A DNA stretch of 32,000 bases from Staphylothermus marinus F1 (lineage in GTDB: Archaea; Thermoproteota; Thermoprotei_A; Sulfolobales; Desulfurococcaceae): assembly GCF_000015945.1 (NCBI RefSeq), contig NC_009033.1, positions 420,001 through 452,000 of the forward strand, given 5' to 3'. A model generated the notes under the pieces. The model was not told where the DNA came from. It ran no database searches and saw only the letters and a program-made list of their open reading frames with translations. The position numbers were made by a program, and so were the translations under genes. Each line of letters starts with the position of its first letter. Positions within the stretch are counted from its first letter, which is position 1. Below are positions 6,644-20,856 of the stretch, piece after piece.

Positions 6644-6964
6644 CTATTTTCTCTTGCCAATATATTTAGTTATTAGCTGTAAGAATGGTGGGAGCGATCT
6701 AGTTTGTACATATATTCTTCCAGGTCCTTCAACTTCTATGACAAGTTCTTCTCCACCGAAAAAGAAGCTTTTTAATCCACCAAACCTTCTAATATTCCAT
6801 TTCATACCGTCATCCATTGCTACGAAGTGGAAATTATCTATGATGATTCTCTCGCCTACACCCAGTTCTTTCTTTAATATTCCTCCATAACTATTTATCC
6901 ATACGCCGCCAACGCCACTAGCTTTTAGCCAAAACATTTCTCCCTCAGCTAATAATCCTCTCAA
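6644..6964 (-). CDS. AIM24/DUF124 (TIGR00266-like) protein, C-terminal half (downstream of an in-frame TAG)
   Basis: GEMFWLKASGVGGVWINSYGGI...GERIIIDNFHFVAMD...GEELVIEVEGPGRIYVQTRSL is typical of the second half of AIM24-family proteins. It is in the same frame as 6971..7354 and separated from it only by TAG at 6971-6973. Confidence 0.65.
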   Translation of the reverse strand: MRGLLAEGEMFWLKASGVGGVWINSYGGILKKELGVGERIIIDNFHFVAMDDGMKWNIRRFGGLKSFFFGGEELVIEVEGPGRIYVQTRSLPPFLQLITKYIGKRK

Positions 6965-6970
6965 ACCCCT

Positions 6971-7354
6971 CTATGCAACACTCAGCTTTATATCGCCATG
7001 GTGTGCAAGATAGCTTGTATCTTGAATAATTAGGTCTCTCGAACCATTCAGAGCAACATACTCTATATCTCCGGGTAAAGAAGGAGCAAACCAAACCTCT
7101 CCTCCCCTAGGACCTGCTGTGAAAGTATTCATGAATATTGATTCTCCACCCAATAATTTTCTTGCAATAGCACTACCCAAACCACCTGTATGAGTTTTCA
7201 CATTAACGTCCCCAGCCATATACACCATAGCACCAGGCTCTGCAGTAACGCTTTCATTCGGTTCAAGGACTACTTGTAAAAGAGAATATGAAGGCCTAGT
7301 TACAATTTCCCACTTCATAATGCATACCCCGAATAAACAGCAACATATATTCAA
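6971..7354 (-). CDS. AIM24/DUF124 (TIGR00266-like) protein, N-terminal half (ends at an in-frame TAG)
   Basis: MKWEIVTRPSYSLLQVVLEPNESVTAEPGAMVYMAGDV...GGESIFMNTFTA matches the family N-terminus. The likely true start is MKWEIV at 7318. The two halves together total about 224 aa, the usual family size. Confidence 0.65.
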   Translation of the reverse strand: MNICCCLFGVCIMKWEIVTRPSYSLLQVVLEPNESVTAEPGAMVYMAGDVNVKTHTGGLGSAIARKLLGGESIFMNTFTAGPRGGEVWFAPSLPGDIEYVALNGSRDLIIQDTSYLAHHGDIKLSVA

Positions 7355-7464: not shown

Positions 7465-7592
7465 AGCCGCCGGCGGGATTTGAACCCGCGACCACCGGCT
7501 CTCCCGGCCTATGTATTGTACGGGCCTGAATTAGTTCCTTGGTCTCTTCGGGCTTACAAGGCCGGCGCTCTACCGGGCTGAGCTACGGCGGC
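7465..7592 (-). tRNA. tRNA-Thr (anticodon UGU) with a 54-nt intron
   Basis: Reverse strand reads GCCGCCG-TA-GCTC-AGCCCGGTA-GAGC-G-CCGGC-CTTGTA-[intron 7501..7554]-A-GCCGG-TGGTC-GCGGG-TTCAAAT-CCCGC-CGGCGGC-T. It has a perfect 7-bp acceptor stem and a canonical T arm. The intron is at the canonical 37/38 position. No CCA is encoded. Confidence 0.9.
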
Positions 7593-9706: not shown

Positions 9707-11053
9707 ATGAGTATATCAATACCTTTGCCGAGGTTTTTTGATCGCGAACTATTGTCTAGAGTTGTTAGTATAAGTTTACCGATGATCATTAGTGAATTAA
9801 GTAATAGTATTTATGCAATAACTGATACTTATTTTGTTAAAGGTCTTGGTACTGTTGCTTTAGCAGGTGTAGGTTTAGGTAGTTATTTGTCATGGCTTTT
9901 CTTTGTTGTCTTATCGCTTTTCTATAATGGTGTATTAATATATGTGGCTCAATCATATGGTGCCGGTAAACTAGTATATGCTAGAAGGGGGTTGAGCGAG
10001 GCAATAGTTTACGGCACAATAATAGTATTTGCAATTTCATTTTTTGGATATATTTTTGGAGGATATATTTTAATGCTACAAGCTGGGGGAACAGGTCCTG
10101 TATGGGAAGCTGCAAAAGCTTATTTTAGTATCCGTGTTCTAGGATTGCCGATCAGCCTTATAGCGTGGTCAATGGATGCTGGTCTCAGAGCTATTGGAGC
10201 AACAAAGCAGTCAATGTATGTTAATCTTTATAGTGTAGGATTAAACATTGTGCTGGATCCACTATTTATATATGGGTACGCTGGTTTTCCAAGATTAGGC
10301 GTCGTTGGTGCTGCTTTAGCAACTGTTATATCTATTGCTTTAATGATACCATTAGAATACTATTATTTAGCTAAACATACACTAGCCCCTAACAAGATTT
10401 ATAAACCGAAAATAGTCTTCAAGATCATGGATTTAGGCTTACCAGTTATGATTGAAAGACTGATTTTTGCAGCTGGAAACAATGTTTATATATCTCTTAT
10501 ATCTAGATGTGGAGAAGCAGCTTTAGCCGCTCATCAAATAGGGGTACGTATTGAGAGCTTAATATATATGCCAGGATTTGCATTCTCAATGGCTGCATCA
10601 GCACTGGTGGGGCAAGAGATAGGTGCTGAAAATATTAGTGGTGGGAGGAGAATAGGTTGGGAAACAATTAAGCTCGGAGTACTCTTTATTACATTGACAG
10701 GTTTAATTGTAGCCGCTACATCATATTATATAACCATGCCTTTTGCAACGGATCCTGTGGTACACAAGCTTGCATCGATATATTTGATCATAGCTGGTTT
10801 AAGCGAGTTAGGGCTGGGATTAGCTATGGTAATTGGTGGAGCAATAAGAGGAGCGGGGAATACGAGAATACCTCTCATAATTAATGCTGGAAGCCTCTAC
10901 CTATCCAGGATAATCCCAGCAATGATCCTAGTTAATTATCTAGGGGTCCTAGGTCCCTGGCTAGCAATGTTTATAGATGTATATGTTCGAGGAATAATAT
11001 TCTTAATAATATTTACTAGGTATTTCGAGAAATTAGCTAGGAAGATCGTGTAA
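9707..11053 (+). CDS. MATE family efflux transporter
   Basis: 448 aa, about 12 TM helices. Contains PMIISELSNSIYAITDTYFVKGLG and AAHQIGVRIESL blocks, characteristic of the two MATE half-repeats. Confidence 0.85.
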   Translation: MSISIPLPRFFDRELLSRVVSISLPMIISELSNSIYAITDTYFVKGLGTVALAGVGLGSYLSWLFFVVLSLFYNGVLIYVAQSYGAGKLVYARRGLSEAIVYGTIIVFAISFFGYIFGGYILMLQAGGTGPVWEAAKAYFSIRVLGLPISLIAWSMDAGLRAIGATKQSMYVNLYSVGLNIVLDPLFIYGYAGFPRLGVVGAALATVISIALMIPLEYYYLAKHTLAPNKIYKPKIVFKIMDLGLPVMIERLIFAAGNNVYISLISRCGEAALAAHQIGVRIESLIYMPGFAFSMAASALVGQEIGAENISGGRRIGWETIKLGVLFITLTGLIVAATSYYITMPFATDPVVHKLASIYLIIAGLSELGLGLAMVIGGAIRGAGNTRIPLIINAGSLYLSRIIPAMILVNYLGVLGPWLAMFIDVYVRGIIFLIIFTRYFEKLARKIV

Positions 11054-11088
11054 AAATATCTATTCTTACAAGTATAGTACTTGTATAT

Positions 11089-11243
11089 GGGAGATGAAGA
11101 AGTTACGCACTCGTCAACCCCGCTTAGGGGGATGCACGAGCCCACTCCGCAGATCCCCTGGTTGAAATGATGAGAATTGGTCTTTGAGGAAACCCTCGAT
11201 GATTGAGGGTGATGCTTGAGGGAACGAATGCTGATCTTTCCCA
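11089..11243 (+). ncRNA. Candidate structured sRNA with C/D-box-like motifs (GC-rich island)
   Basis: A GC-rich island in an AT-rich spacer. 5' GGGAGA can pair with 3' TCTTTCCC. It contains AATGATGA (11166-11173), hairpin CCCTC-GATGATT-GAGGG, GTGATGC and CTGA (11231-11234). Box spacings are not canonical. Strand and ends are tentative. Confidence 0.35.
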
Positions 11244-11285
11244 ACAAATCTTTATTCTTAGCAATTGTAATATATAGAGTAATAC

Positions 11286-12248
11286 ATGGGATTCCCAGGT
11301 GGTTCGCTTACAATGTATAATGATTGGACTGAACAATTAGAGTATAGAATAGGTAAATATATAATAGGCGGTAAGCCAGGTAAAAACCCTGCATGGCTTA
11401 TTGGATCAATATTTTATCTAGGAGACAAGCTTTTACTCAGTGAGAAAGGAGATTTTGATAAGGAAAAAGCTAAAGCGAAAATCGAGGAAGCTATAAATAT
11501 TGCTGAAAACTACTCATTAGTTTTCGGATTAGACGTTGTATTTCCCAGTATTGAAAGCATTGATAAAATATTACCATTTATATCAGAATATGATATCCCT
11601 ATATTTCTTGACAGCCCAGACCCAATTATTAGAGCTAAAAGCTATCTAGTAGCTAAAGAGCTTGGAATAAATGATAAAATCATAGCTAACGGAATCTTCA
11701 TAGATAGCCCTGAGGAAGAAATAAATGCATTAAGAGATGGTGGGATAAAAACATCAGTAATAATGGCTTTTGATCCTAGAAACCCGTTGAAATCAATTAA
11801 TCCATTAGAGAGGCTAAGACTCCTAGAAACCGTCCTTTTGCCTCTCGCTGAAAAAGCCGGTGTTGAACAAGTTCTTGTCGACGCTATAGTAATCGATCCT
11901 GCAAGTATAGCGTTTAGTGCTGAAACAATATTTGAGACCAAGAAGAGATTTGGTTATCCAAGTGGTTGTGCACCAGCCAATGCTCTCGGACCTGTATCTA
12001 AGTCTAAAACTAGTATTGGAGAAATGTATGGCGTACATGGAGGCGTCGCTGTCTATTTAAGAATTCATGGAGCAGACTATATCATGTATGGTCCCATATC
12101 TAGGATCAAATACGTTGCTCCAGCAGTAGCTATGGCTGATTCATTGCTTGGATATAGTCTTAGAAGAAAAGGAGAAAAAATCTCTAGTAATCATCCAATA
12201 AAGAAGATGCTTAGAAAAGTACAGAAACTATTTGCTACCTCTAAGTGA
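11286..12248 (+). CDS. MtrH-family methyltransferase (methyl-pterin:corrinoid methyltransferase-like)
   Basis: Blocks IGGKPGKNPAWLIGSIFY, IFLDSPDP, YGPISRIKYVAPAVAMADSL and NHPIKKML align with the hallmark blocks of tetrahydromethanopterin S-methyltransferase subunit H as I recall them. The start may be the second ATG (MYNDW, 11313). Confidence 0.8.
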   Translation: MGFPGGSLTMYNDWTEQLEYRIGKYIIGGKPGKNPAWLIGSIFYLGDKLLLSEKGDFDKEKAKAKIEEAINIAENYSLVFGLDVVFPSIESIDKILPFISEYDIPIFLDSPDPIIRAKSYLVAKELGINDKIIANGIFIDSPEEEINALRDGGIKTSVIMAFDPRNPLKSINPLERLRLLETVLLPLAEKAGVEQVLVDAIVIDPASIAFSAETIFETKKRFGYPSGCAPANALGPVSKSKTSIGEMYGVHGGVAVYLRIHGADYIMYGPISRIKYVAPAVAMADSLLGYSLRRKGEKISSNHPIKKMLRKVQKLFATSK

Positions 12249-13865
12249 AACTATGTTTAAACTATTAATCCACGTCCTCATATAGTCTTCTTCTTCAGCC
12301 AAGTTTATATGAATAATCTTCTCCAGAATAGATCTATACATCTTAAACATGTTAGAATCAAGCACCATAACTTTCAAACCAGATAAAACCATGTTTCCAG
12401 CATAAGCTAACCTATCATCCTCTACTACAGGTACAAGACCTAAATCGATAAGATCACTGGATTCAATATTTGAGCCGAAGCTCCCAGCAATAATTACATG
12501 TTCTAAATCTTCACATTTAATCCCAGCTTTTCTACATAGTATTATCCAAGCTGTTTTAACTGCTGCATAAGCTTTCTGAAACTCCCTTAGATCCTTCTGT
12601 GTAAAGAATACATGATTTTCCTTGTCGATAATATATGTTTTAATATTATTGATGCGTTTATAGCCTTTAAGAAACCTGCCTTTCTCATCAATGTATTTAT
12701 GGCGGAGGAGTTCAGCAACTAAACTAATAATTCCTGTTCCAAGCAATCCATATGGTTTATTAATGTATTTATAATTGAAAACTGGTTCGCCATTTTTGGA
12801 ATCAACGATCTCAACTTTATATATTCCGCCGTAAACAATCGATGATCCTCTGGCTAAGTGTCCCTCGAAAGCTGGTCCAGCAGGTGTGCTCGTAGCATAT
12901 ATTTTATCACTGGTTACAAGTAATACTTCAGTATTTGTTCCCAAATCTATAATCATGTATGGCTTCTTCAATGCTAACTTGAGAGACGCTATTAGTTCAG
13001 AATAAGCATCTCCTCCAACATAACCCGCTATTAGGGGGGCTAGTATTGTTGGCTTATTATATGTATATGTTAGGAAGGGGCCGTGAAATAGTGGTTGAAA
13101 TGGCTTTTCAGCCAATGTTTCTATTGGGAGACCTAAATATAGATGCTCCATAACACTGTTCCCAGCAATAAATATTGATCCAGTATTGAATTCTTCAGCA
13201 ATACTGTTAGCTTCTTTTCTAAGCATTAAACTCATTTCTTGGAGACTTTCAGGTTTTTCTAGAACATTAGTTATTCTTGTAATTATATCTGCACCGTAAA
13301 TGTTGAGTGGATTAATACTTATTTTCTCATCAATTACCTCTCCATTAATTGTTATTGCTTGATATGCTATCTTAGTTGTTCCTAGATCAATCAATAATAT
13401 TTTTTCAGGGTCCCCTGTCGTGGAAAGGACGGTATCTTCTAAAAATATATAATTAGATGGTCTCGGCTCATTTATTACTACATAGTTTTTGTTTCTATAT
13501 GGTAGCTTTTCTAAACGAGCAATTTTGATTATAGGATTTATTTGTTTAAGCGGGATATTTATCGAGTATTTTGGAACACTAATTATTCTCGGCTTCTCGG
13601 CTTCAACAACGAGGTCCCCCATTACTAGTACTTGGCAAGCTAGTCTCTCATCTCCCCTTAATCCATGAACAACTTCGTTTCCAGTTATAGGATTCGTTTC
13701 TCCATATACTTTTACTCTACATAATCCGCATAATCCTCTGCCGCCGCATGGTAATGGTATGATGCTTTTTGATGCTAGTATTAATCCTAAATTATCTCCT
13801 TTACACGCGGGTATTTCTCCGTAGCCAACAACTTTTATAGTTACTTTTTCACAGTTTTTATGCAT
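12228..13865 (-). CDS. Reductive activase of corrinoid enzymes (RACE/RamA-RACo type: N-terminal 2Fe-2S ferredoxin plus ASKHA ATPase, DUF4445)
   Basis: N-terminal PCGGRGLCGLCRV...LACQV is a plant-type 2Fe-2S motif. It is followed by ASKHA phosphate motifs LLIDLGTTKIAY and MIIDLGTNTEV. It overlaps the upstream corrinoid-protein gene by 8 nt. Confidence 0.8.
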   Translation of the reverse strand: MHKNCEKVTIKVVGYGEIPACKGDNLGLILASKSIIPLPCGGRGLCGLCRVKVYGETNPITGNEVVHGLRGDERLACQVLVMGDLVVEAEKPRIISVPKYSINIPLKQINPIIKIARLEKLPYRNKNYVVINEPRPSNYIFLEDTVLSTTGDPEKILLIDLGTTKIAYQAITINGEVIDEKISINPLNIYGADIITRITNVLEKPESLQEMSLMLRKEANSIAEEFNTGSIFIAGNSVMEHLYLGLPIETLAEKPFQPLFHGPFLTYTYNKPTILAPLIAGYVGGDAYSELIASLKLALKKPYMIIDLGTNTEVLLVTSDKIYATSTPAGPAFEGHLARGSSIVYGGIYKVEIVDSKNGEPVFNYKYINKPYGLLGTGIISLVAELLRHKYIDEKGRFLKGYKRINNIKTYIIDKENHVFFTQKDLREFQKAYAAVKTAWIILCRKAGIKCEDLEHVIIAGSFGSNIESSDLIDLGLVPVVEDDRLAYAGNMVLSGLKVMVLDSNMFKMYRSILEKIIHINLAEEEDYMRTWINSLNIVSLRGSK

Positions 13866-14529
13866 CTATATACTCCTCAGCAATCTTATTCACAAGCTTC
13901 ACAGCCTCGATAGCGTTGGGAGCCCAGCCATCCGCACCAATTTTTTCCGCGAATTCCCTAGTAGTAGCTGCTCCTCCTACTAAAACTTTTACTTTCTCCC
14001 TTAAACCATTCTTTTCTAACTCCTCAATTATTACTCTCATATATCTCGCAGTTGTAGATAGTAACGCACTTAAACCAATTATTTGAGGCTTATATTTTAT
14101 GATTGCATCAATTATTTTTTCAGCATCAACATCAACACCTAGATCAATCACTTCATGCCCAGCTGCTTGCAACATAACTCCCACAAGTGTTTTACCTATA
14201 TCATGTATATCTCCCTTAACAGTTGCCAATACTATTCTTAGCCTCTTCCTACCCTGAGCCATAGATTTAGCTTCTAATCTCAACCTTGGCTCCAATATCT
14301 TCATTGCCTCCTTAAATATGTCTGCTGCCTCCATAAGCTCCGCTATAAAATATTCTCCCTCCTCATATAATCTGCCGATCTCCTCCATAGCTTTACTCAT
14401 AGGTCCAAGCACAATATCTAAAGCTTTAACCCCCATATCCAACAGTTTTATAACATTATCCAATACACAGTCCTTATCCAAATCTACAAGACAATTGTAG
14501 AGCTTATCAAATAACTCCTCAACACTCAC
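13858..14529 (-). CDS. Corrinoid (cobalamin-binding) methyl-carrier protein
   Basis: 223 aa. It has an N-terminal helical cap domain and a Rossmann-type B12 domain with the DxHxxG motif (GDIHDIGK), SALLSTT and VLVGGAA. Confidence 0.85.
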   Translation of the reverse strand: MSVEELFDKLYNCLVDLDKDCVLDNVIKLLDMGVKALDIVLGPMSKAMEEIGRLYEEGEYFIAELMEAADIFKEAMKILEPRLRLEAKSMAQGRKRLRIVLATVKGDIHDIGKTLVGVMLQAAGHEVIDLGVDVDAEKIIDAIIKYKPQIIGLSALLSTTARYMRVIIEELEKNGLREKVKVLVGGAATTREFAEKIGADGWAPNAIEAVKLVNKIAEEYIDA

Positions 14530-14619
14530 ATCATCGCACCTAACCTATAACCATAGTATTTTATACTATAAGCATTTATTCTAAGAAAAACACATACTAT
14601 TTAAAAACTCAGTAAGTGA

Positions 14620-15612
14620 TTGAAAATGTATGGGAAGATTAGGACAAGCCATGTTGGAAGCTTTCCTCTTCCTCACAGCTTAGATAATCTTAGGATGATC
14701 ATAGATGATTTATGGAGAATTAAACTAGATGCACCACCATATCCTCAGCTGAGAAGCTTTATAGACATATATCTCAAACCCTTAGCAGATAAGGGGTTAT
14801 TAAAGGAAAAGAACGGGTTTTATTTCTTAGAATCTAAGGAGTCATTTAAGGATATAGAATATTTAGAGCCAAGCATTAATGAAGCAGAATATATGATAAA
14901 GTATCTTGAAGAGAAAAAATATGGTTTTAAATGGCTCAGAGCACCTGTAACAGGAGCTTTTACCTTAGCATCTAGAATATACTTATCCAAAGACATAAGT
15001 GTGGGGCTACATGGAACGCTTCTCCGAAAAAAATCCCTGATAGAATACATTGTAGAATATGTTAGAAAACATATCACATATATGAGCAGGTTAGGCTATA
15101 ACATATTATTTATTGATGAACCAGTCCTCGGAGTCATTGTTGGTAAGAGAAGAATACTGTTCGGCTTCTCCCAAGAAGAAATCATAGAAATAATAAATCA
15201 TATATTCTCAAAAGCACCAGGTGAACACGGCATACATGTATGCGGGAGAATATCGCCTAAACTATTCGAAACATTAGCAATCACGGATAAACTAGACATT
15301 CTAAACTTCGAATTCCACGATAACCCCATGAACATCGAATCAATAAATCCAAGCCTGTTAGAGGAGAATAATAAAGTTCTAGCTCCGGGAATTGCTAGTG
15401 CTAAGAAACCAGTTATTGAACCATATGATGAACTAAGTGATTTACTCAGGAAGATAGGTGAAAAAACCATGTGGAGAATAGACTTAGTCTCAGCAGATTG
15501 CGGCTTCGGCGGATTGGCTACAGACTCAGGCGATCCATATAAAGCATACCGTATAGGATTAGAGAAGCTACATAGGATAATTGAAGTAGTAAGGCTTCTC
15601 CAAAAGAAATAG
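14620..15612 (+). CDS. Core MetE-type (Meth_synt_2-like) zinc methyltransferase lacking the N-terminal folate-binding half
   Basis: 330 aa. Contains TSHVGSFPLP, LFIDEPVL, IHVCGR (His-x-Cys), NFEF and SADCGFGGL. These correspond to the substrate and Zn-ligand blocks of the cobalamin-independent methionine synthase catalytic domain. The likely true start is ATG 14626, about 25 nt downstream of CTATTTAAAA. Confidence 0.75.
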   Translation: MKMYGKIRTSHVGSFPLPHSLDNLRMIIDDLWRIKLDAPPYPQLRSFIDIYLKPLADKGLLKEKNGFYFLESKESFKDIEYLEPSINEAEYMIKYLEEKKYGFKWLRAPVTGAFTLASRIYLSKDISVGLHGTLLRKKSLIEYIVEYVRKHITYMSRLGYNILFIDEPVLGVIVGKRRILFGFSQEEIIEIINHIFSKAPGEHGIHVCGRISPKLFETLAITDKLDILNFEFHDNPMNIESINPSLLEENNKVLAPGIASAKKPVIEPYDELSDLLRKIGEKTMWRIDLVSADCGFGGLATDSGDPYKAYRIGLEKLHRIIEVVRLLQKK

Positions 15613-16318
15613 TCATGCATACTTCATAAATACACGTATGCCCTCAATGGGTTCTAGGGGAGTGGACAATACTACGCCATCACTGAGCCCTCTCAACGCC
15701 TCCAAACGATCCTTTAACTCTTCAGAACTTATAAATGGTTGATTAAGCTTGACAAACAATTCCTTATTCTTACCAATCCCTAAAAGAATAAATACATAAT
15801 ATTTTCACACCTAACCTACTAGCTTCCCGATAAATCATGCTAAGCAACTGGTCCTTACTTGCATCGTAGTTTATTGCATGATAAAAATCTGCTCCAAGCC
15901 TTATTCTCTCCATTATCTTTTCAAACGGGTATCTTAAACTAATAATTGCCCCTTTCCTAAACCTATAGTTTTTCTTTTTAAGCAGACCAAGTGCTTCCTC
16001 CGTACCTATATCCTCAACTATTCTCCCTTGCCATGGCTTATCTCCTCTAAGTAGAACTAATCCATCCAAACCATATGCTTCTACCGCATTAGCAATTGAT
16101 AAAAGCGCTAACCTGTTTATATCATATAGTCTTACATGAGGAAATGTTTTCAGATCATACTTATATTTAAGATACATTGCAGTAGCCAAACTATATATAC
16201 CAGGATAACCTCCAGGGCCTTCTGGAATAGTGTAAATACTAAAGAAATCCTTTGCTAAATCAACAATTTCATCTACTAATTTCTTTTTCCAAGGAACAAG
16301 TTCGAATAAATACTCCAT
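15613..16318 (-). pseudogene. MetF/MTHFR-like reductase interrupted by a 1-nt frameshift (track ORF 15770..16318 plus a 61-codon continuation)
   Basis: FELVP..., PHVRLYDINR and GLVLLRGDKP resemble the MTHFR blocks (FEFFPP, LALRGD.P). After ...SRLGVK the frame shifts at the A-run (T-run 15802-15805 on the + strand). The shifted frame stays open for 61 protein-like codons (YYVFILLGIGKNKELFVKLNQPFISSEELKDRLEALRGLSDGVVLSTPLEPIEGIRVFMKYA) and stops at 15613-15615. Confidence 0.6.
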
Positions 16319-16466: not shown

Positions 16467-16733
16467 TTATCCTCCTGATACAGGGGGGAGAATTGTGACT
16501 AAGTCGTTGTCTTTTAGTATATAGTTTTTCCTTCCAGGTCTTCCATTGACCAGTATTATGAAGGGGTTATTGTCACTAAAAATATTGCTTAGATATTTCT
16601 CTGCTTCTCTATGTTTAAGGATGATCATTCTTACTAGGTTTTCTAAAGTAGTTTCTCTATCTAGTTTGAATTCTTCTTGTTCTATTCCTATTTTCTCGCG
16701 TAGCCATAGCATATATTTAACTTTGATTCTCAT
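16467..16733 (-). CDS. MoaD/ThiS-family ubiquitin-like small protein (C-terminal GG)
   Basis: 88 aa, ending ...LVTILPPVSGG followed directly by the stop codon. Size is appropriate for a beta-grasp protein. Confidence 0.75.
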   Translation of the reverse strand: MRIKVKYMLWLREKIGIEQEEFKLDRETTLENLVRMIILKHREAEKYLSNIFSDNNPFIILVNGRPGRKNYILKDNDLVTILPPVSGG

Positions 16734-18508: not shown

Positions 18509-18659
18509 AACTCTCTGTTCAGTGCCGAGAATATTATATGTTGAAAAACTAGATATGCCTTACATATATACCTATTTCTTAAACGATATATAGTTATCTA
18601 TAAACCATCTAGTATAGATTGCCTCAAATATTATTGATAATAATTCACCAATAATTGGA

Positions 18660-18706
18660 GTTCAACCCACATAGGTCTTAATAGACCCACGTAGGCCTTG
18701 GAGCAC
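18660..18706 (-). repeat. Degenerate copy of the hairpin-containing K-turn module (see 19485..19542 and 20596..20649)
   Basis: GTTCAACCCACATAGGTCTTAATAGACCCACGTAGGCCTTGGAGCAC aligns with 19488..19534. The box equivalents are degraded: TTGA instead of CTGA, and TTGTGCT instead of GTGATGT, on the reverse strand. Confidence 0.5.
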
Positions 18707-18779
18707 AAGGTAATGCTTAGTTAAAATATCGCAATCTCTTAAATCATATCCTAGAACACTTAATGAGGGGAATACGTTT

Positions 18780-19502
18780 ATGGTTAGCTATAGGAGAATT
18801 ATATATGCTATAATAGAATCTGTTGGTTTAGGTTTTAATGTTAAACCTGTTCAGGAGGCTATTAGGAGGGTTATTTCTAAGTATAGAATAAGTGATCCTC
18901 AAGTTGATCGTAAGGTTTCCGGCATAGTTTACAGTATTTACCGTTATCAGGGGCTTTTAGATAAGATCGTTACCGACATAACCGGTTTTAATCCTTCAGA
19001 TCTCCCATATTATGTTCATGCAGCCTTACTTGTAGCTGCTTATGTTTCACAATTAGACGAGAAGATGAGTAGCTCGATGAAGAGAACTTTTAAGAGATAT
19101 ATTCTGAGATATTTGGGCAAGAAAATAGGTGATAAAGCAGTTAGAGAGAAAATTATTGATAAAGCTAAGCTGTTATTTAATAATAAATGGTCTCCAAATA
19201 GTGAAGAAGACAAGGTTCTTCTAAAATATAGGGTTTCCCCAGAACTATACCGTGCACTAGCTAAGGCTCTCAAAGAACTCGGTGAAAATCTGGATGATTT
19301 CTTAAATGCAACAATGAAGATCAAGTATAGGGTTTTCAGGGTTAATTCTTTGAAGGCTAAACCGGAAGCTGTATATAGATTTCTCGAAGACTCAGAGTAT
19401 AAGGTTGAACTGGGTAAGTACAGTAGGAGAGCTATTAGAGTTTATGGGAGTATTAGGAGGGAGATTATAAGGTTTATTGAGACAGGGGTTCAGCCCACAT
19501 AG
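18780..19502 (+). CDS. NOL1/NOP2/Sun (RsmB-like) RNA m5C methyltransferase, N-terminal domain only; first fragment of a broken gene
   Basis: It has a NusB-like N-terminus and YRVFRVNSLKAKPEAVYRFLEDSEYKVE...RAIRVYGS...RFIETG, which is typical pre-catalytic Sun-family sequence. After codon 236 (19487) the ORF runs into the GC-rich repeat and stops. Confidence 0.7.
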   Translation: MVSYRRIIYAIIESVGLGFNVKPVQEAIRRVISKYRISDPQVDRKVSGIVYSIYRYQGLLDKIVTDITGFNPSDLPYYVHAALLVAAYVSQLDEKMSSSMKRTFKRYILRYLGKKIGDKAVREKIIDKAKLLFNNKWSPNSEEDKVLLKYRVSPELYRALAKALKELGENLDDFLNATMKIKYRVFRVNSLKAKPEAVYRFLEDSEYKVELGKYSRRAIRVYGSIRREIIRFIETGVQPT

Positions 19503-19662
19503 GTTTTGATAGACCTATGTGGGCTTTGGGACACATCACCCCTGCGGATGATTCGCAGGAGCTCGTCCCCTTTCGGGGTAACCCCGGAGCCCCACATCCG
19601 AAGGTACGCCCCCATAGGCTACCATTGTAGCCTGACAGAGGGGGCTTTTACCACCTCCACAA
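19485..19662 (-). ncRNA. K-turn (C/D-box-like) sRNA paralogue 'R2', antisense, inserted in the Sun gene
   Basis: Reverse strand 3' module is GGGG-TGATGT-GTCCCAAAGC-[11-bp hairpin CCCACATAGGT/ACCTATGTGGG]-CTGA-A-CCCC (19485..19542). This is homologous to the C'/D half of 24636..24719. Upstream are GC-rich hairpins, including CCCC-GAAA-GGGG. TTTAAATA on the reverse strand (19683-19690) lies about 25 nt upstream of the proposed 5' end. Confidence 0.45.
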
Positions 19663-19755
19663 TTGTATGTATATGGTAAAGTATTTAAACCTTTTGGATC
19701 GAAGGTTGATTAATGCTTACGAACGCCCACCAAATCCGTTACTGTTGCGGAGGGC

Positions 19756-19860
19756 ATACTTGTTCCACAGGATGAATCAAGTATTGTGGCCGTAGAAATT
19801 CTTGATCCAAAGCCTGAGACCAAGATTGCGGATCTATGTGCTGCTCCAGGTGGTAAGACT
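19756..19860 (+). pseudogene. Sun-family methyltransferase fragment 2 (SAM-binding motif I)
   Basis: ILVPQDESSIVAVEILDPKPETKIADLCAAPGGKT matches the Q(D/E)xSS...DxCAAPGGKT block of NOL1/NOP2/Sun enzymes. It is in a different frame from fragment 1. Confidence 0.7.
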
Positions 19861-20093
19861 ATTTGCTTATTTGGATACTATGATTGTTTAGAGGGGCTAG
19901 TTGTTTGGTTCGCTTTATAAACCCTTTATAATATAGTGGTTTGTGAAATGCGGATGAAGGGCTCAAAAGTGGTCTATGTGGAGCCCCGATAGCCCCCTCA
20001 ATGAAGGGATGAAGCCCCAACCCAAGAGGGGGAAGCCCGTGCAAGCATCCAAAGTTTCCAAAACAACCAAAAGATAAAGCACGGGCAACCACT
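19855..20093 (+). mobile_element. GC-rich repeat element 'E2', copy B
   Basis: Homologous to 1426..1685. It has the same ends (AAGACTATT...CCACT), TTTATAAA at 19904-19911 and a near-identical GC-rich core at 19943..20093. No flanking direct repeat is present here. Confidence 0.6.
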
Positions 20094-20094
20094 A

Positions 20095-20292
20095 CTATAT
20101 ACAGTATGCAGTGTATTGCCTTGGGAGGGAGAATATATTATCAGGGATTTCCTGGAAAAACATAGGGATGCAGAGCTTATACCATTAAATAAGCCATTCA
20201 AACAATCACCTATCCTGCCAGGTACAATGCGTGCATGGCCCCATATACATGGCACCATAGGCTTCTACTATGCATTACTAAAGAAAAAATAA
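20095..20292 (+). pseudogene. Sun-family methyltransferase fragment 3 (C-terminal end, motif VI onward)
   Basis: LYTVCSVLPWEGEYIIRDFLEKHRDAELIPL...RAWPHIHGTIGFYYALLKKK matches the (V)YSTCS..EENE..V..FL ... GFF.A.L.K terminus of the family. The roughly 125-145 residues between motif I and this block, including the DAPCSG motif IV, are absent. Confidence 0.65.
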
Positions 20293-20496: not shown

Positions 20497-20661
20497 GATG
20501 AAGGGTTTTCCCCACAGCCGTGAGCTGTGGGCAGGGGTTACCCGGATCGGGGACAAGGCCGATGATATGCTCCCCGATGAAAGGGGGGCTGAGGTTGATG
20601 AATCCCAAAGCCTACATAGGCCTATCAAGACCTACGTAGGCTGAACCCCGGCTTCTTCATC
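20497..20661 (+). ncRNA. K-turn (C/D-box-like) sRNA paralogue 'R3'
   Basis: 5' GATGAAG (20497-20503) is exactly complementary to 3' CTTCATC (20655-20661). Internally it reads GATGATA...CCCC-GATGAAA-GGGG...CTGA-GGT-TGATGA-ATCCCAAAGCC-[hairpin CCTACATAGG/CCTACGTAGG]-CTGA-ACCCC. It shares GGGGTTACCC.GA..GGGGAC with R2. The 5' end could lie further upstream (about 20443), downstream of TTTATAGA at 20413-20420. Confidence 0.5.
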
Positions 20662-20856
20662 CCATAGAATCAATAAATTATACTAACCATATATTAATTC
20701 CCCCGAATGTTTTTACTTGTCGATAATAATATTTTTAAATTACTCGGGATAAATGAGAATATGTCTTTATTCACGGGAAAATACTAGTAAAACAATAAAA
20801 TAAGAAGTTAAAATAAAATTACAAATAGCAACATAATAGTTATTAGGGTTATTGAT

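Follow-up and report, generated by a model that had tools for sequence, protein, structure and literature searches.

A candidate modular cobamide-dependent methionine synthase built around a core MetE in Staphylothermus marinus F1

Staphylothermus marinus is a cultured hyperthermophilic peptide fermenter of the Desulfurococcales that cannot synthesise most amino acids or purines, and its genome paper leaves methionine, cobalamin and folate unmentioned (PMC2678158). A stretch of 32,000 nucleotides (nt) of the 1,570,485-bp genome of strain F1 (contig NC_009033.1, positions 420,001 to 452,000) was analysed here; it is called the window below and is numbered from its first letter. It holds a cluster of genes for an MtrH-like pterin methyltransferase, a RACo-type reductive activase, a small corrinoid protein, a single-barrel MetE-type enzyme (core MetE) and a compact MTHFR-like protein (mini-MTHFR), which may together form a methionine synthase made of separate proteins.

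The cluster is arranged as four alternating transcription units. The MtrH-like gene (11286..12248, plus strand) is followed on the minus strand by the RACo gene (12228..13865; exact match to ABN69525) and the corrinoid protein gene (13858..14529; ABN69526). The stop of the latter overlaps the RACo start by 8 nt, and the two genes are translationally coupled. The corrinoid protein gene is separated by an AT-rich divergent intergenic region of 96 nt (14530..14625) from the core MetE gene on the plus strand; the open reading frame (ORF) of the latter covers 14620..15612, and its annotated ATG at 14626 gives a protein of 328 amino acids (aa) identical to ABN69527. Two TATA-like boxes can be read from the sequence of this region, TTTAAAAA about 25 nt 5′ of the core MetE ATG and TATAAAA, on the minus strand, about 30 nt 5′ of the GTG start codon of the corrinoid protein at 14529; both are putative promoters. 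The mini-MTHFR gene (15613..16318, minus strand) is interrupted, leaving an ORF of 182 aa at 15770..16318. S. marinus F1 entries matched exactly (ABN69523 and ABN69525–ABN69527) comprise cluster proteins and the flanking MATE transporter, and Staphylothermus hellenicus (locus L079) keeps an identical gene order across more than 15 kb.

Called ORFs were scanned against Pfam and NCBIfam, the other ORFs of the window being scanned against Pfam where they were at least 100 aa long. The MtrH-like protein matches the Pfam MtrH model PF02007 over residues 16–294 with 142.7 bits (E 1.7e-41; cutoff 22.8). It scores 222.6 bits against the MtrH-family model NF002142 of NCBIfam, under the cutoff of 287, and fails both equivalog models, TIGR01114 for mtrH (127.3 bits vs 271.4) and NF047990 for MtgA (184 bits vs 550). 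The closest solved structure is 6sj8, the methylcorrinoid:tetrahydrofolate methyltransferase MtgA (E 1.5e-48), with entries for MtrH of the Mtr complex ranking behind it. The version held by NCBI is 311 aa long, with a start 9 codons downstream, and ABN69524 falls in the same 90%-identity cluster. None of the other mtr genes (MtrA to MtrG) was seen nearby or among the scanned ORFs, nor did Pfam reveal an MttB-family gene among them to accompany an MtgA-type role. By these matches 11286..12248 encodes a predicted stand-alone pterin methyltransferase of the MtrH/MtgA family, and we propose that it acts as a methyl-pterin:corrinoid methyltransferase, that is, as the loader of the corrinoid protein.

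The domain make-up of the protein encoded at 12228..13865 identifies it as a RACo/RamA-type reductive activase with an N-terminal 2Fe-2S ferredoxin domain and a C-terminal ASKHA ATPase, for which ATP-dependent activity is predicted. Three Pfam models match it, Fer2 (22.9 bits), Raco_middle (80.7 bits) and RACo_C_ter (185.2 bits); the 2Fe-2S motif C40-x5-C46-x2-C49...C77 is present in the translation, and the closest PDB entries, 3zyy and 4c1n, are both RACo. Its scores lie under the curated AcsV and RamA cutoffs of NCBIfam. The adjacent corrinoid protein, the proposed methyl carrier, consists of a four-helix cap (B12-binding_2) and a Rossmann-type B12 domain (B12-binding) in which DIHDIG represents the DxHxxG motif. 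Its best NCBIfam matches are MtgC and MtbC, and the B12 region of MetH is matched as well (region 646–857 of TIGR02082, 137.6 bits). PDB matches include 1y80, 4jgi, 7xcn (MttC), MtmC and 1bmt (MetH; 8e-31). Its score against TIGR02370 (168 vs 215.3) is below the cutoff, which places it in no named equivalog.

The core MetE carries the blocks HVGSFP, IDEP, HVCG and DCG. Its score against the Pfam model Meth_synt_2 (PF01717; 19.9 bits) lies just under the gathering score of 21, many of its close homologues have a precomputed match to this model, and Pfam finds no Meth_synt_1 match, the folate-binding N-terminal half being absent. The Pfam score being sub-threshold, assignment to the MetE type rests on three other observations. 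A profile built from 27 homologues matches Thermotoga maritima MetE (1t7l; E 1.8e-6) and aligns IDEP, HxC (HMC in 1t7l), E and DCG with the substrate and zinc positions of MetE. None of the zinc ligands H206, C208, E231 and C294 varies among the aligned members of a set of 73 relatives, whatever the architecture of the locus, and the homocysteine contacts S14 (GSFP), Q43 (PYPQLR) and D166 (IDEP) are equally constant; the E. coli counterparts are H641, C643, E665 and C726 for zinc and S433, E484 and D599 for homocysteine. By position and motif, Q43 is taken as the counterpart of E. coli Glu484, a position at which two core methionine synthases, MesA and MesC, also have Gln. Finally, the AlphaFold2 model is a single (beta/alpha)8 barrel (predicted local distance difference test, pLDDT, 95.9), for which the best Foldseek matches are 3rpd (the core methionine synthase MesD) and the C-terminal domains of MetE, with query-normalised template modelling (TM) scores of about 0.63–0.69. 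We therefore propose a Zn-dependent homocysteine methyltransferase consisting of a single barrel, with a methyl-corrinoid as its presumed methyl donor. In heterotrophic Desulfurococcales this protein is annotated as "cobalamin-independent".

The family around the core MetE is small: a search of 1.84 billion representative proteins gave 292 matches at E ≤ 1e-3 and 55 at E ≤ 1e-30. Against NF002119, an NCBIfam model of methionine synthase with a cutoff of 258, the S. marinus protein reaches 52.8 bits. Weaker matches of the same search, 306–309 aa long, pass that model, with 365 and 275 bits for outgroup proteins of 308–309 aa, which is MesA size. We infer from the length and the matches of NF002119 that it can serve as a proxy for MesA; the nearest curated relatives would then be MesA-size enzymes of methanogens, with the core MetE forming a separate family. 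Membership in MesA, in MesC or among the catalytic subunits of split MetE is not supported: the NCBIfam scores lie far under the cutoffs, and of these forms Price et al. saw split MetE alone in Thermoprotei. An identity as a URO-D/MtaA-type methyltransferase 1 or 2 (MT1 or MT2) was rejected, since MetE and MesD structures outrank MtaA and UroD and the amino-acid-binding residues specific to MetE are invariant.

The mini-MTHFR is the least conventional member of the cluster. Its intact 234-aa homologue has no match in Pfam, the 182-aa ORF resembles only weakly the N-terminus of the MetF model TIGR00676 (26.9 bits vs 293.7), and a profile of its family reaches the MTHFRs of the PDB only at E 0.4–1.3. 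Its AlphaFold2 model, an eight-stranded barrel (pLDDT 92.6), retrieves MTHFRs exclusively in the top 50 PDB matches of Foldseek (query-normalised TM about 0.63–0.76), including FAD-independent mycobacterial enzymes; this fold search also disposed of an identity as some other TIM barrel. Shorter than MetF by about 50 residues, the protein conserves E6 and an LRGD motif (R91-G92-D93). We take E6 and the Asp of this motif, by motif, to be E28 and D120 of E. coli MetF. The modelled fold thus points to a protein of the MTHFR type, and a role as methylene-pterin reductase is proposed. In strain F1 the last 53 codons run in another frame: compared with L077, a 99%-identical contig with an intact gene of 234 codons, the window has a 1-nt insertion near 15798. 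This frame break and the alignment with L077 rule out an intact gene over 15613..16318, and the gene is intact in L077, in S. hellenicus and, without exception, in some 25 further relatives.

An earlier note, made from the letters of this DNA alone, had described five tightly packed genes. Four of them are exactly as it said: an MtrH-family pterin methyltransferase at 11286..12248, which passes the MtrH profile; a 2Fe-2S plus ASKHA activase, confirmed by its three Pfam domains, whose gene overlaps that of the corrinoid protein by 8 nt; a small B12-binding protein with DxHxxG at 13858..14529, where both B12 domains and DIHDIG were found; and a core MetE without the N-terminal folate half, given there as 330 aa, with the named blocks in place. 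The fifth, a MetF/MTHFR-like gene at 15613..16318, has an MTHFR-type modelled fold and is frameshifted, so that it does not form one ORF. The note had also counted on an absence of MT1 genes, which the Pfam scan bears out: no MT1-type gene (MttB, MtaB or URO-D) occurs among the other scanned ORFs of at least 100 aa in the window.

Gene neighbourhoods were compared in one genome per GTDB species. The scan recovered 73 core MetE loci, all from Thermoproteota; neighbours within 8 kb were counted by tblastn and all-against-all ORF clustering in the 72 loci with a called core MetE gene. A corrinoid protein accompanies the core MetE in 41 of the 72 loci and RACo in 38, and 48 have at least one of the two. 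MtrH is present in 21. Mini-MTHFR occurs in 20 and a canonical MTHFR in 4, giving 24 loci with either kind, and MttB-family and URO-D-family genes are found in 9 and 6 loci, respectively. Because the same genes recur around the core MetE while the other flanking genes differ, the clustering goes far beyond chance; their recurrence in dozens of species-level genomes, together with the domain matches, excludes fortuitous grouping or mis-called ORFs.

In a neighbour-joining tree of the core MetE, locus architectures track clades. The clade of the window comprises Staphylothermus, Thermogladius, Pyrodictiaceae and many metagenome-assembled genomes (MAGs) of Desulfurococcales, with 45–65% protein identity and differing flanking genes; throughout it a corrinoid protein, RACo, MtrH and one or other kind of MTHFR are present. 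In Pyrodictiaceae (L017, L019, L025 and L075) a canonical 370-aa MTHFR with a Zn-ribbon (Pfam MTHFR, 1.2e-22) substitutes for mini-MTHFR and lies between MtrH and RACo. A Zestosphaera-like clade combines the core MetE with a 478-aa MttB-family protein (5.9e-78), a corrinoid protein and RACo, and its loci contain no MtrH within the counted distance. A further clade has the core MetE with RACo, a URO-D-family protein and a corrinoid protein. Altogether, the MttB-type loci (L033, L034, L042, L044, L048, L049, L056, L062 and L070), in which MttB is of the non-pyrrolysine kind, and the URO-D-type loci (L021, L023, L024, L027, L039 and L041) have a corrinoid protein, often RACo and mostly no MtrH, the exceptions being L039 and L041, where MtrH occurs with the URO-D gene. 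In a deep clade (L057–L067) RACo lies directly downstream of the core MetE, in a neighbourhood that encodes shikimate dehydrogenase, shikimate kinase and dehydroquinate synthase II.

Ignisphaera departs from this pattern, as its loci mostly lack corrinoid protein, RACo, MtrH and MTHFR partners. In several of its species, I. aggregans included (L001/L002, 9010-16360; further loci L029, L031 and L060), the core MetE adjoins genes for the biosynthesis of a methanopterin-type pterin (GCHY-1, an MptE-like and a GHMP-kinase-like gene, a Pterin_bind protein and DHNA), and L029, L031 and L060 have a CitG-like gene directly upstream; neither a corrinoid protein nor MtrH was found near the core MetE in these pterin-linked loci. 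Ignisphaera has been reported to possess a Wood–Ljungdahl pathway (PMC6421429), which makes its corrinoid iron–sulfur protein (CoFeSP) a conceivable donor there, as has been proposed for the core methionine synthases MesB and MesC.

In our judgement the S. marinus cluster is likely to represent a modular cobamide-dependent homocysteine methyltransferase, i.e., a methionine synthase, made of separate proteins. In the proposed mechanism, mini-MTHFR would reduce methylene-pterin to methyl-pterin, where the pterin may be tetrahydrofolate- or methanopterin-like. The MtrH/MtgA-like enzyme would pass the methyl group from methyl-pterin to the Co(I) form of the corrinoid protein. The core MetE would activate homocysteine at its zinc site (His206, Cys208, Glu231 and Cys294) and take the methyl group from the methyl-Co(III) corrinoid protein, yielding methionine and Co(I). 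Whenever the cobalt is oxidised to inactive Co(II), RACo would re-reduce it at the expense of ATP, with electrons delivered through its 2Fe-2S domain. The relay from protein to protein, its direction, the pterin and the electron donors are what we infer here, beside protein families, folds, conserved catalytic residues and gene linkage that are observed.

The comparison of loci is informative about the place of the core MetE in such a relay. Core MetE, corrinoid protein and RACo remain constant while the loader varies, which fits the core MetE as an acceptor-side methyl-corrinoid:homocysteine methyltransferase, served by a dedicated corrinoid carrier and interchangeable loaders. The MttB and URO-D loci would comprise complete sets of MT1, corrinoid protein, MT2 and activase only if the core MetE is the acceptor-side enzyme, and their usual lack of MtrH argues for the core MetE as methyl acceptor. 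In the clade of the window, an MtrH/MtgA-type loader together with an MTHFR implies that the methyl group would come from the one-carbon (C1) pool. Methyl transfer from methyl-pterin to homocysteine, as catalysed by MetH and MetE, is strongly exergonic. The direction from pterin to homocysteine is accordingly suggested by this exergonic homocysteine methylation, by the MttB loci, which would otherwise be without an acceptor, and by the biosynthetic context of the deep clade. S. marinus being an amino-acid auxotroph, re-methylation of homocysteine is a more plausible role than de novo methionine synthesis, and the main task in this organism is probably to re-methylate homocysteine released by S-adenosylmethionine (SAM)-dependent methylation.

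Several observations weigh against a biosynthetic relay of this kind. S. marinus grows on peptides and has no need for de novo methionine. The nearest characterised relative of the MtrH-like protein, MtgA (6sj8), runs in the opposite direction, from methyl-corrinoid to tetrahydrofolate. The mini-MTHFR gene is frameshifted in the F1 reference sequence, which may mean an incomplete pathway in this strain or a sequence error. About one third of the family, Ignisphaera included, has no corrinoid-related neighbour within 8 kb. One alternative is that the cluster works catabolically: a core MetE-like MT1 would demethylate methionine, or a methyl-thioether derived from peptides, onto the corrinoid protein, the MtrH-like enzyme would pass the methyl group to a pterin and the MTHFR-like protein would oxidise it to methylene-pterin for the C1 pool. 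Such a function would suit a peptide fermenter that cannot synthesise most amino acids and purines (PMC2678158); the characterised stand-alone MtrH-family enzymes of non-methanogenic systems, MtgA and MtoA, reportedly run from corrinoid to pterin (PMC8630106), and residues that bind homocysteine are equally able to bind methionine. We nevertheless regard it as quite unlikely, as reversing the exergonic methylation of homocysteine calls for energy that the cluster has no means of providing, the MttB and URO-D loci, mostly devoid of MtrH, would be left with two donors and no acceptor enzyme, and the shikimate-pathway context of the deep clade is biosynthetic.

Alternatively, the corrinoid protein, MtrH-like enzyme and RACo might mainly serve a demethylase whose MT1 is encoded elsewhere in the genome, the core MetE merely tapping the pool of methyl-corrinoid. 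There is a precedent for a shared carrier in Ruegeria pomeroyi, where MtgC and MtgD of the MtgBCDE set serve both glycine-betaine demethylation and methionine synthesis (PMC12478193), and among the relatives of the core MetE there are some linked to an MT1 gene of the MttB or URO-D type. The scanned ORFs of the 32-kb window, however, include no MT1, none lies within 8 kb in the MtrH-type loci except L039 and L041, and in the clade of the window MtrH co-occurs with an MTHFR gene and not with an MT1, so that we consider this arrangement unlikely for S. marinus. It is also conceivable that the synteny is inherited without functional coupling, the core MetE drawing on free methylcobamide, on CoFeSP or, through an unrecognised partner, on a pterin, and the MtrH-like protein, corrinoid protein and RACo doing something unrelated. 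The four alternating transcription units, in place of a single operon, and the third of family members without these neighbours would be compatible with this. Linkage is nonetheless kept at 40–65% protein identity, between unrelated flanks and even after exchange of the loader, and RACo alone is retained directly downstream of the core MetE in the deep clade (L057–L067); a purely positional association thus appears very improbable.

The modular methionine synthase also agrees with much of what the earlier note had expected. It had assigned the core MetE a carrier, loader, activase and reductase of its own; synteny, the invariant ligands and the exchange of MTHFR kinds in Pyrodictiaceae speak for this, and the frameshift in the reductase gene speaks against it. 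It had considered that the zinc and homocysteine ligands might be missing, and the alignment finds all of them present and invariant. It had pointed to gene neighbourhoods across Thermoproteota as a check, and there the linkage to a corrinoid protein or RACo is kept in two thirds of the loci (48 of the 72 counted). Linkage to an MT1 in relatives, which it regarded as damaging if joined to a canonical metE or metH elsewhere in the genome, does occur in the distant MttB and URO-D clades, but these loci mostly lack MtrH.

Both borders of the cluster contain further features. In the GC-rich region between the MATE transporter and MtrH-like genes (11100-11240, plus strand), a C-box AUGAUGA (11167-11173) and a D-box CUGA (11231-11234), about 68 nt apart, were recognised by eye. 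No Rfam family matched at the gathering score; the region may contain a C/D-box sRNA candidate, and a 103-aa minus-strand ORF that overlaps it (10936-11247) is probably spurious. On the other side, a ThiS/MoaD-like protein of 88 aa with a Gly-Gly end (16467-16733, minus strand) adjoins the cluster in Staphylothermus and Thermogladius, and related genes occur in L003 (3730-3975), L020, L026, L054, L073 and L008. ThiS-like sulfur carriers serve some homocysteine and methionine pathways; we can only speculate that this one is functionally linked to the cluster. In L077 (8850-11312) an 820-aa PTPS_related protein replaces the ThiS, Macro and glycosyltransferase genes found in the window from 16319 on; this strain-level rearrangement falls exactly on the border of the cluster.

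Two more genes of the window are defective in the F1 reference. An AIM24-family gene (6647-7318, minus strand) has an in-frame stop in place of a Trp codon, giving ORFs 6644-6964 and 6971-7354; the remainder is 92% identical to the intact 224-aa protein of S. hellenicus, and the stop reflects a nonsense mutation or else an error of sequencing. An RsmB/Nop2-like methyltransferase gene (18780-20292, plus strand) is disrupted by a GC-rich insert of about 253 nt after residue 254 (19491-19743), and in place of its catalytic core (about 113 aa in S. hellenicus) stands 19857-20085, of which a 92%-identical copy lies at 1499-1677. Repeats tied to this locus are found at 18657-18707, 19485-19541, 20593-20671 and 1428-1677; a 22-nt palindromic core, CCCACATAGGTnTTnATAGACC, occurs three times, where none would be expected by chance. 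Rfam scans of the GC-rich elements at about 19.5–20.7 kb matched no family, and the repeats look like small mobile or structured-RNA elements. With the mini-MTHFR frameshift, three defective genes thus lie within 32 kb, which suggests that genes of this strain are truly decaying or that the sequence has local errors. A tRNA gene at 7465-7592 (minus strand; Rfam tRNA, 60.8 bits) is 128 nt long, a length that implies an intron.

Compared with MetH, the cluster shows the same set of functions: homocysteine binding at zinc, a barrel for methyl-pterin, a B12 domain of the His-on kind with DxHxxG and a means of reactivation. In MetH these form one polypeptide, whereas the S. marinus modules are separate proteins. 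The homocysteine module has the MetE-type Meth_synt_2 fold in place of PF02574, and the pterin module is of the MtrH/MtgA type in place of PF00809; Pfam detects neither PF02574 nor PF00809 in any of the five cluster proteins. Reactivation is predicted to proceed by an ATP-dependent 2Fe-2S RACo, in contrast to the reductive methylation with SAM and flavodoxin of MetH, and, unlike with MetH, an MTHFR-fold gene lies inside the cluster. The description "MetH taken apart", used in the earlier note, was therefore dropped: only the B12 module is MetH-like, and the origin of the others in different families points to independent assembly following the logic of MetH. If the proposal is correct, cobamide-dependent methionine synthesis was assembled independently, from parts differing from those of MetH.

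Price et al. reportedly described in 2018 a split MetH of bacteria, in Phaeobacter inhibens. In Ruegeria pomeroyi it has been proven genetically that MtgC, MtgD and MtgE with RamA make methionine, the genes being mostly dispersed (PMC12478193). The resemblance lies in the separate corrinoid protein, pterin methyltransferase, homocysteine methyltransferase and RamA-like activase, and the Ruegeria carrier is common to an MttB-type betaine demethylase, paralleling the MttB-linked core MetE loci. The split MetH is bacterial, has a homocysteine subunit of the MetH/BHMT type (module 3) and is backed by genetics, while the archaeal cluster has one of the MetE type and is known from sequence. The loci with MttB or URO-D genes suggest that homocysteine is methylated directly, by a cobamide-dependent route, with quaternary amines or other methylated substrates as methyl source, akin to what has been demonstrated genetically for marine bacteria (PMC12478193).

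MtgABC of Desulfitobacterium hafniense, MtoABCD of Methermicoccus and mtrH-mttB-mttC of Culexarchaeia resemble the cluster in uniting a corrinoid protein, an MtrH-family MT2 and RamA or RACo. They possess a substrate-specific MT1 (MtgB/MttB or MtoB), and in them methyl groups pass from a substrate to a pterin; the S. marinus cluster has a MetE-type enzyme and an MTHFR in place of the MT1, which implies a flow from pterin to homocysteine. The mtrH-mttB-corrinoid protein clusters of Culexarchaeia have been read as demethylases, and similar clusters are reported in Thermoproteota-related MAGs. MtrH of the Mtr complex belongs to the same Pfam family and works in the direction proposed for the S. 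marinus protein, methylating cob(I)alamin from methyl-tetrahydromethanopterin (Hippler & Thauer 1999, as cited in PMC7005905). What MtrH does in non-methanogens such as Ignisphaera has been called unclear (PMC6421429); our reading, if true, would provide a function for the stand-alone MtrH genes of non-methanogenic archaea. A full-text literature search, which covered papers outside subscription-only journals, found no archaeal arrangement of MtrH, corrinoid protein, RACo and core MetE, and none for Staphylothermus.

The closest comparison is with the core methionine synthases. Schroder and Thauer are said to have described, in 1999, a core methionine synthase for which methylcobalamin can serve as donor in vitro. 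MesA and MesB accept this cofactor in vitro, with a Michaelis constant that is too high for its free form, and a corrinoid protein was postulated as the donor (PMC7005905, PMC7857596); this was still a prediction in 2024 (PMC11378808). MtrA or CoFeSP have been proposed as donors of MesA to MesC (PMC7857596, PMC7005905, PMC11378808). According to Price et al., MesA occurs in methanogens alone (PMC7857596), and in Thermoprotei they found no form of methionine synthase except split MetE. With MesA to MesD the S. marinus core MetE shares a single-barrel MetE domain of about 300–380 aa with conserved zinc and homocysteine residues, and with MesA and MesC also the Gln at the position of E. coli Glu484 (Q43). 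Judged by sequence comparison, its family is distinct from MesA, MesB, MesC and MesD.

We lean, if only slightly, towards considering it a fifth, so far unclassified family of core methionine synthases, mostly of Thermoproteota, and the first for which the genome itself indicates the physiological methyl donor, namely a dedicated MetH-like corrinoid protein. In that case acceptor, carrier and RACo would stay constant and the loader would be swapped, MtrH with MTHFR for the C1 pool, an MttB-type enzyme for quaternary amines and a URO-D-type enzyme for other methylated substrates, and the orphan mtrH genes found in non-methanogenic Thermoproteota would be accounted for as well. Heterotrophic Desulfurococcales would then depend on B12 through an enzyme annotated as "cobalamin-independent". 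With a candidate donor, loader, activase and methyl-pterin reductase encoded beside the core MetE, a donor question of 25 years becomes testable, and it does so in a cultured host, S. marinus F1, with the same cluster in S. hellenicus and Thermogladius. The proposed donors of MesA to MesC are borrowed from energy metabolism, whereas the S. marinus core MetE adjoins a dedicated MetH-like corrinoid protein, a loader and an activase.

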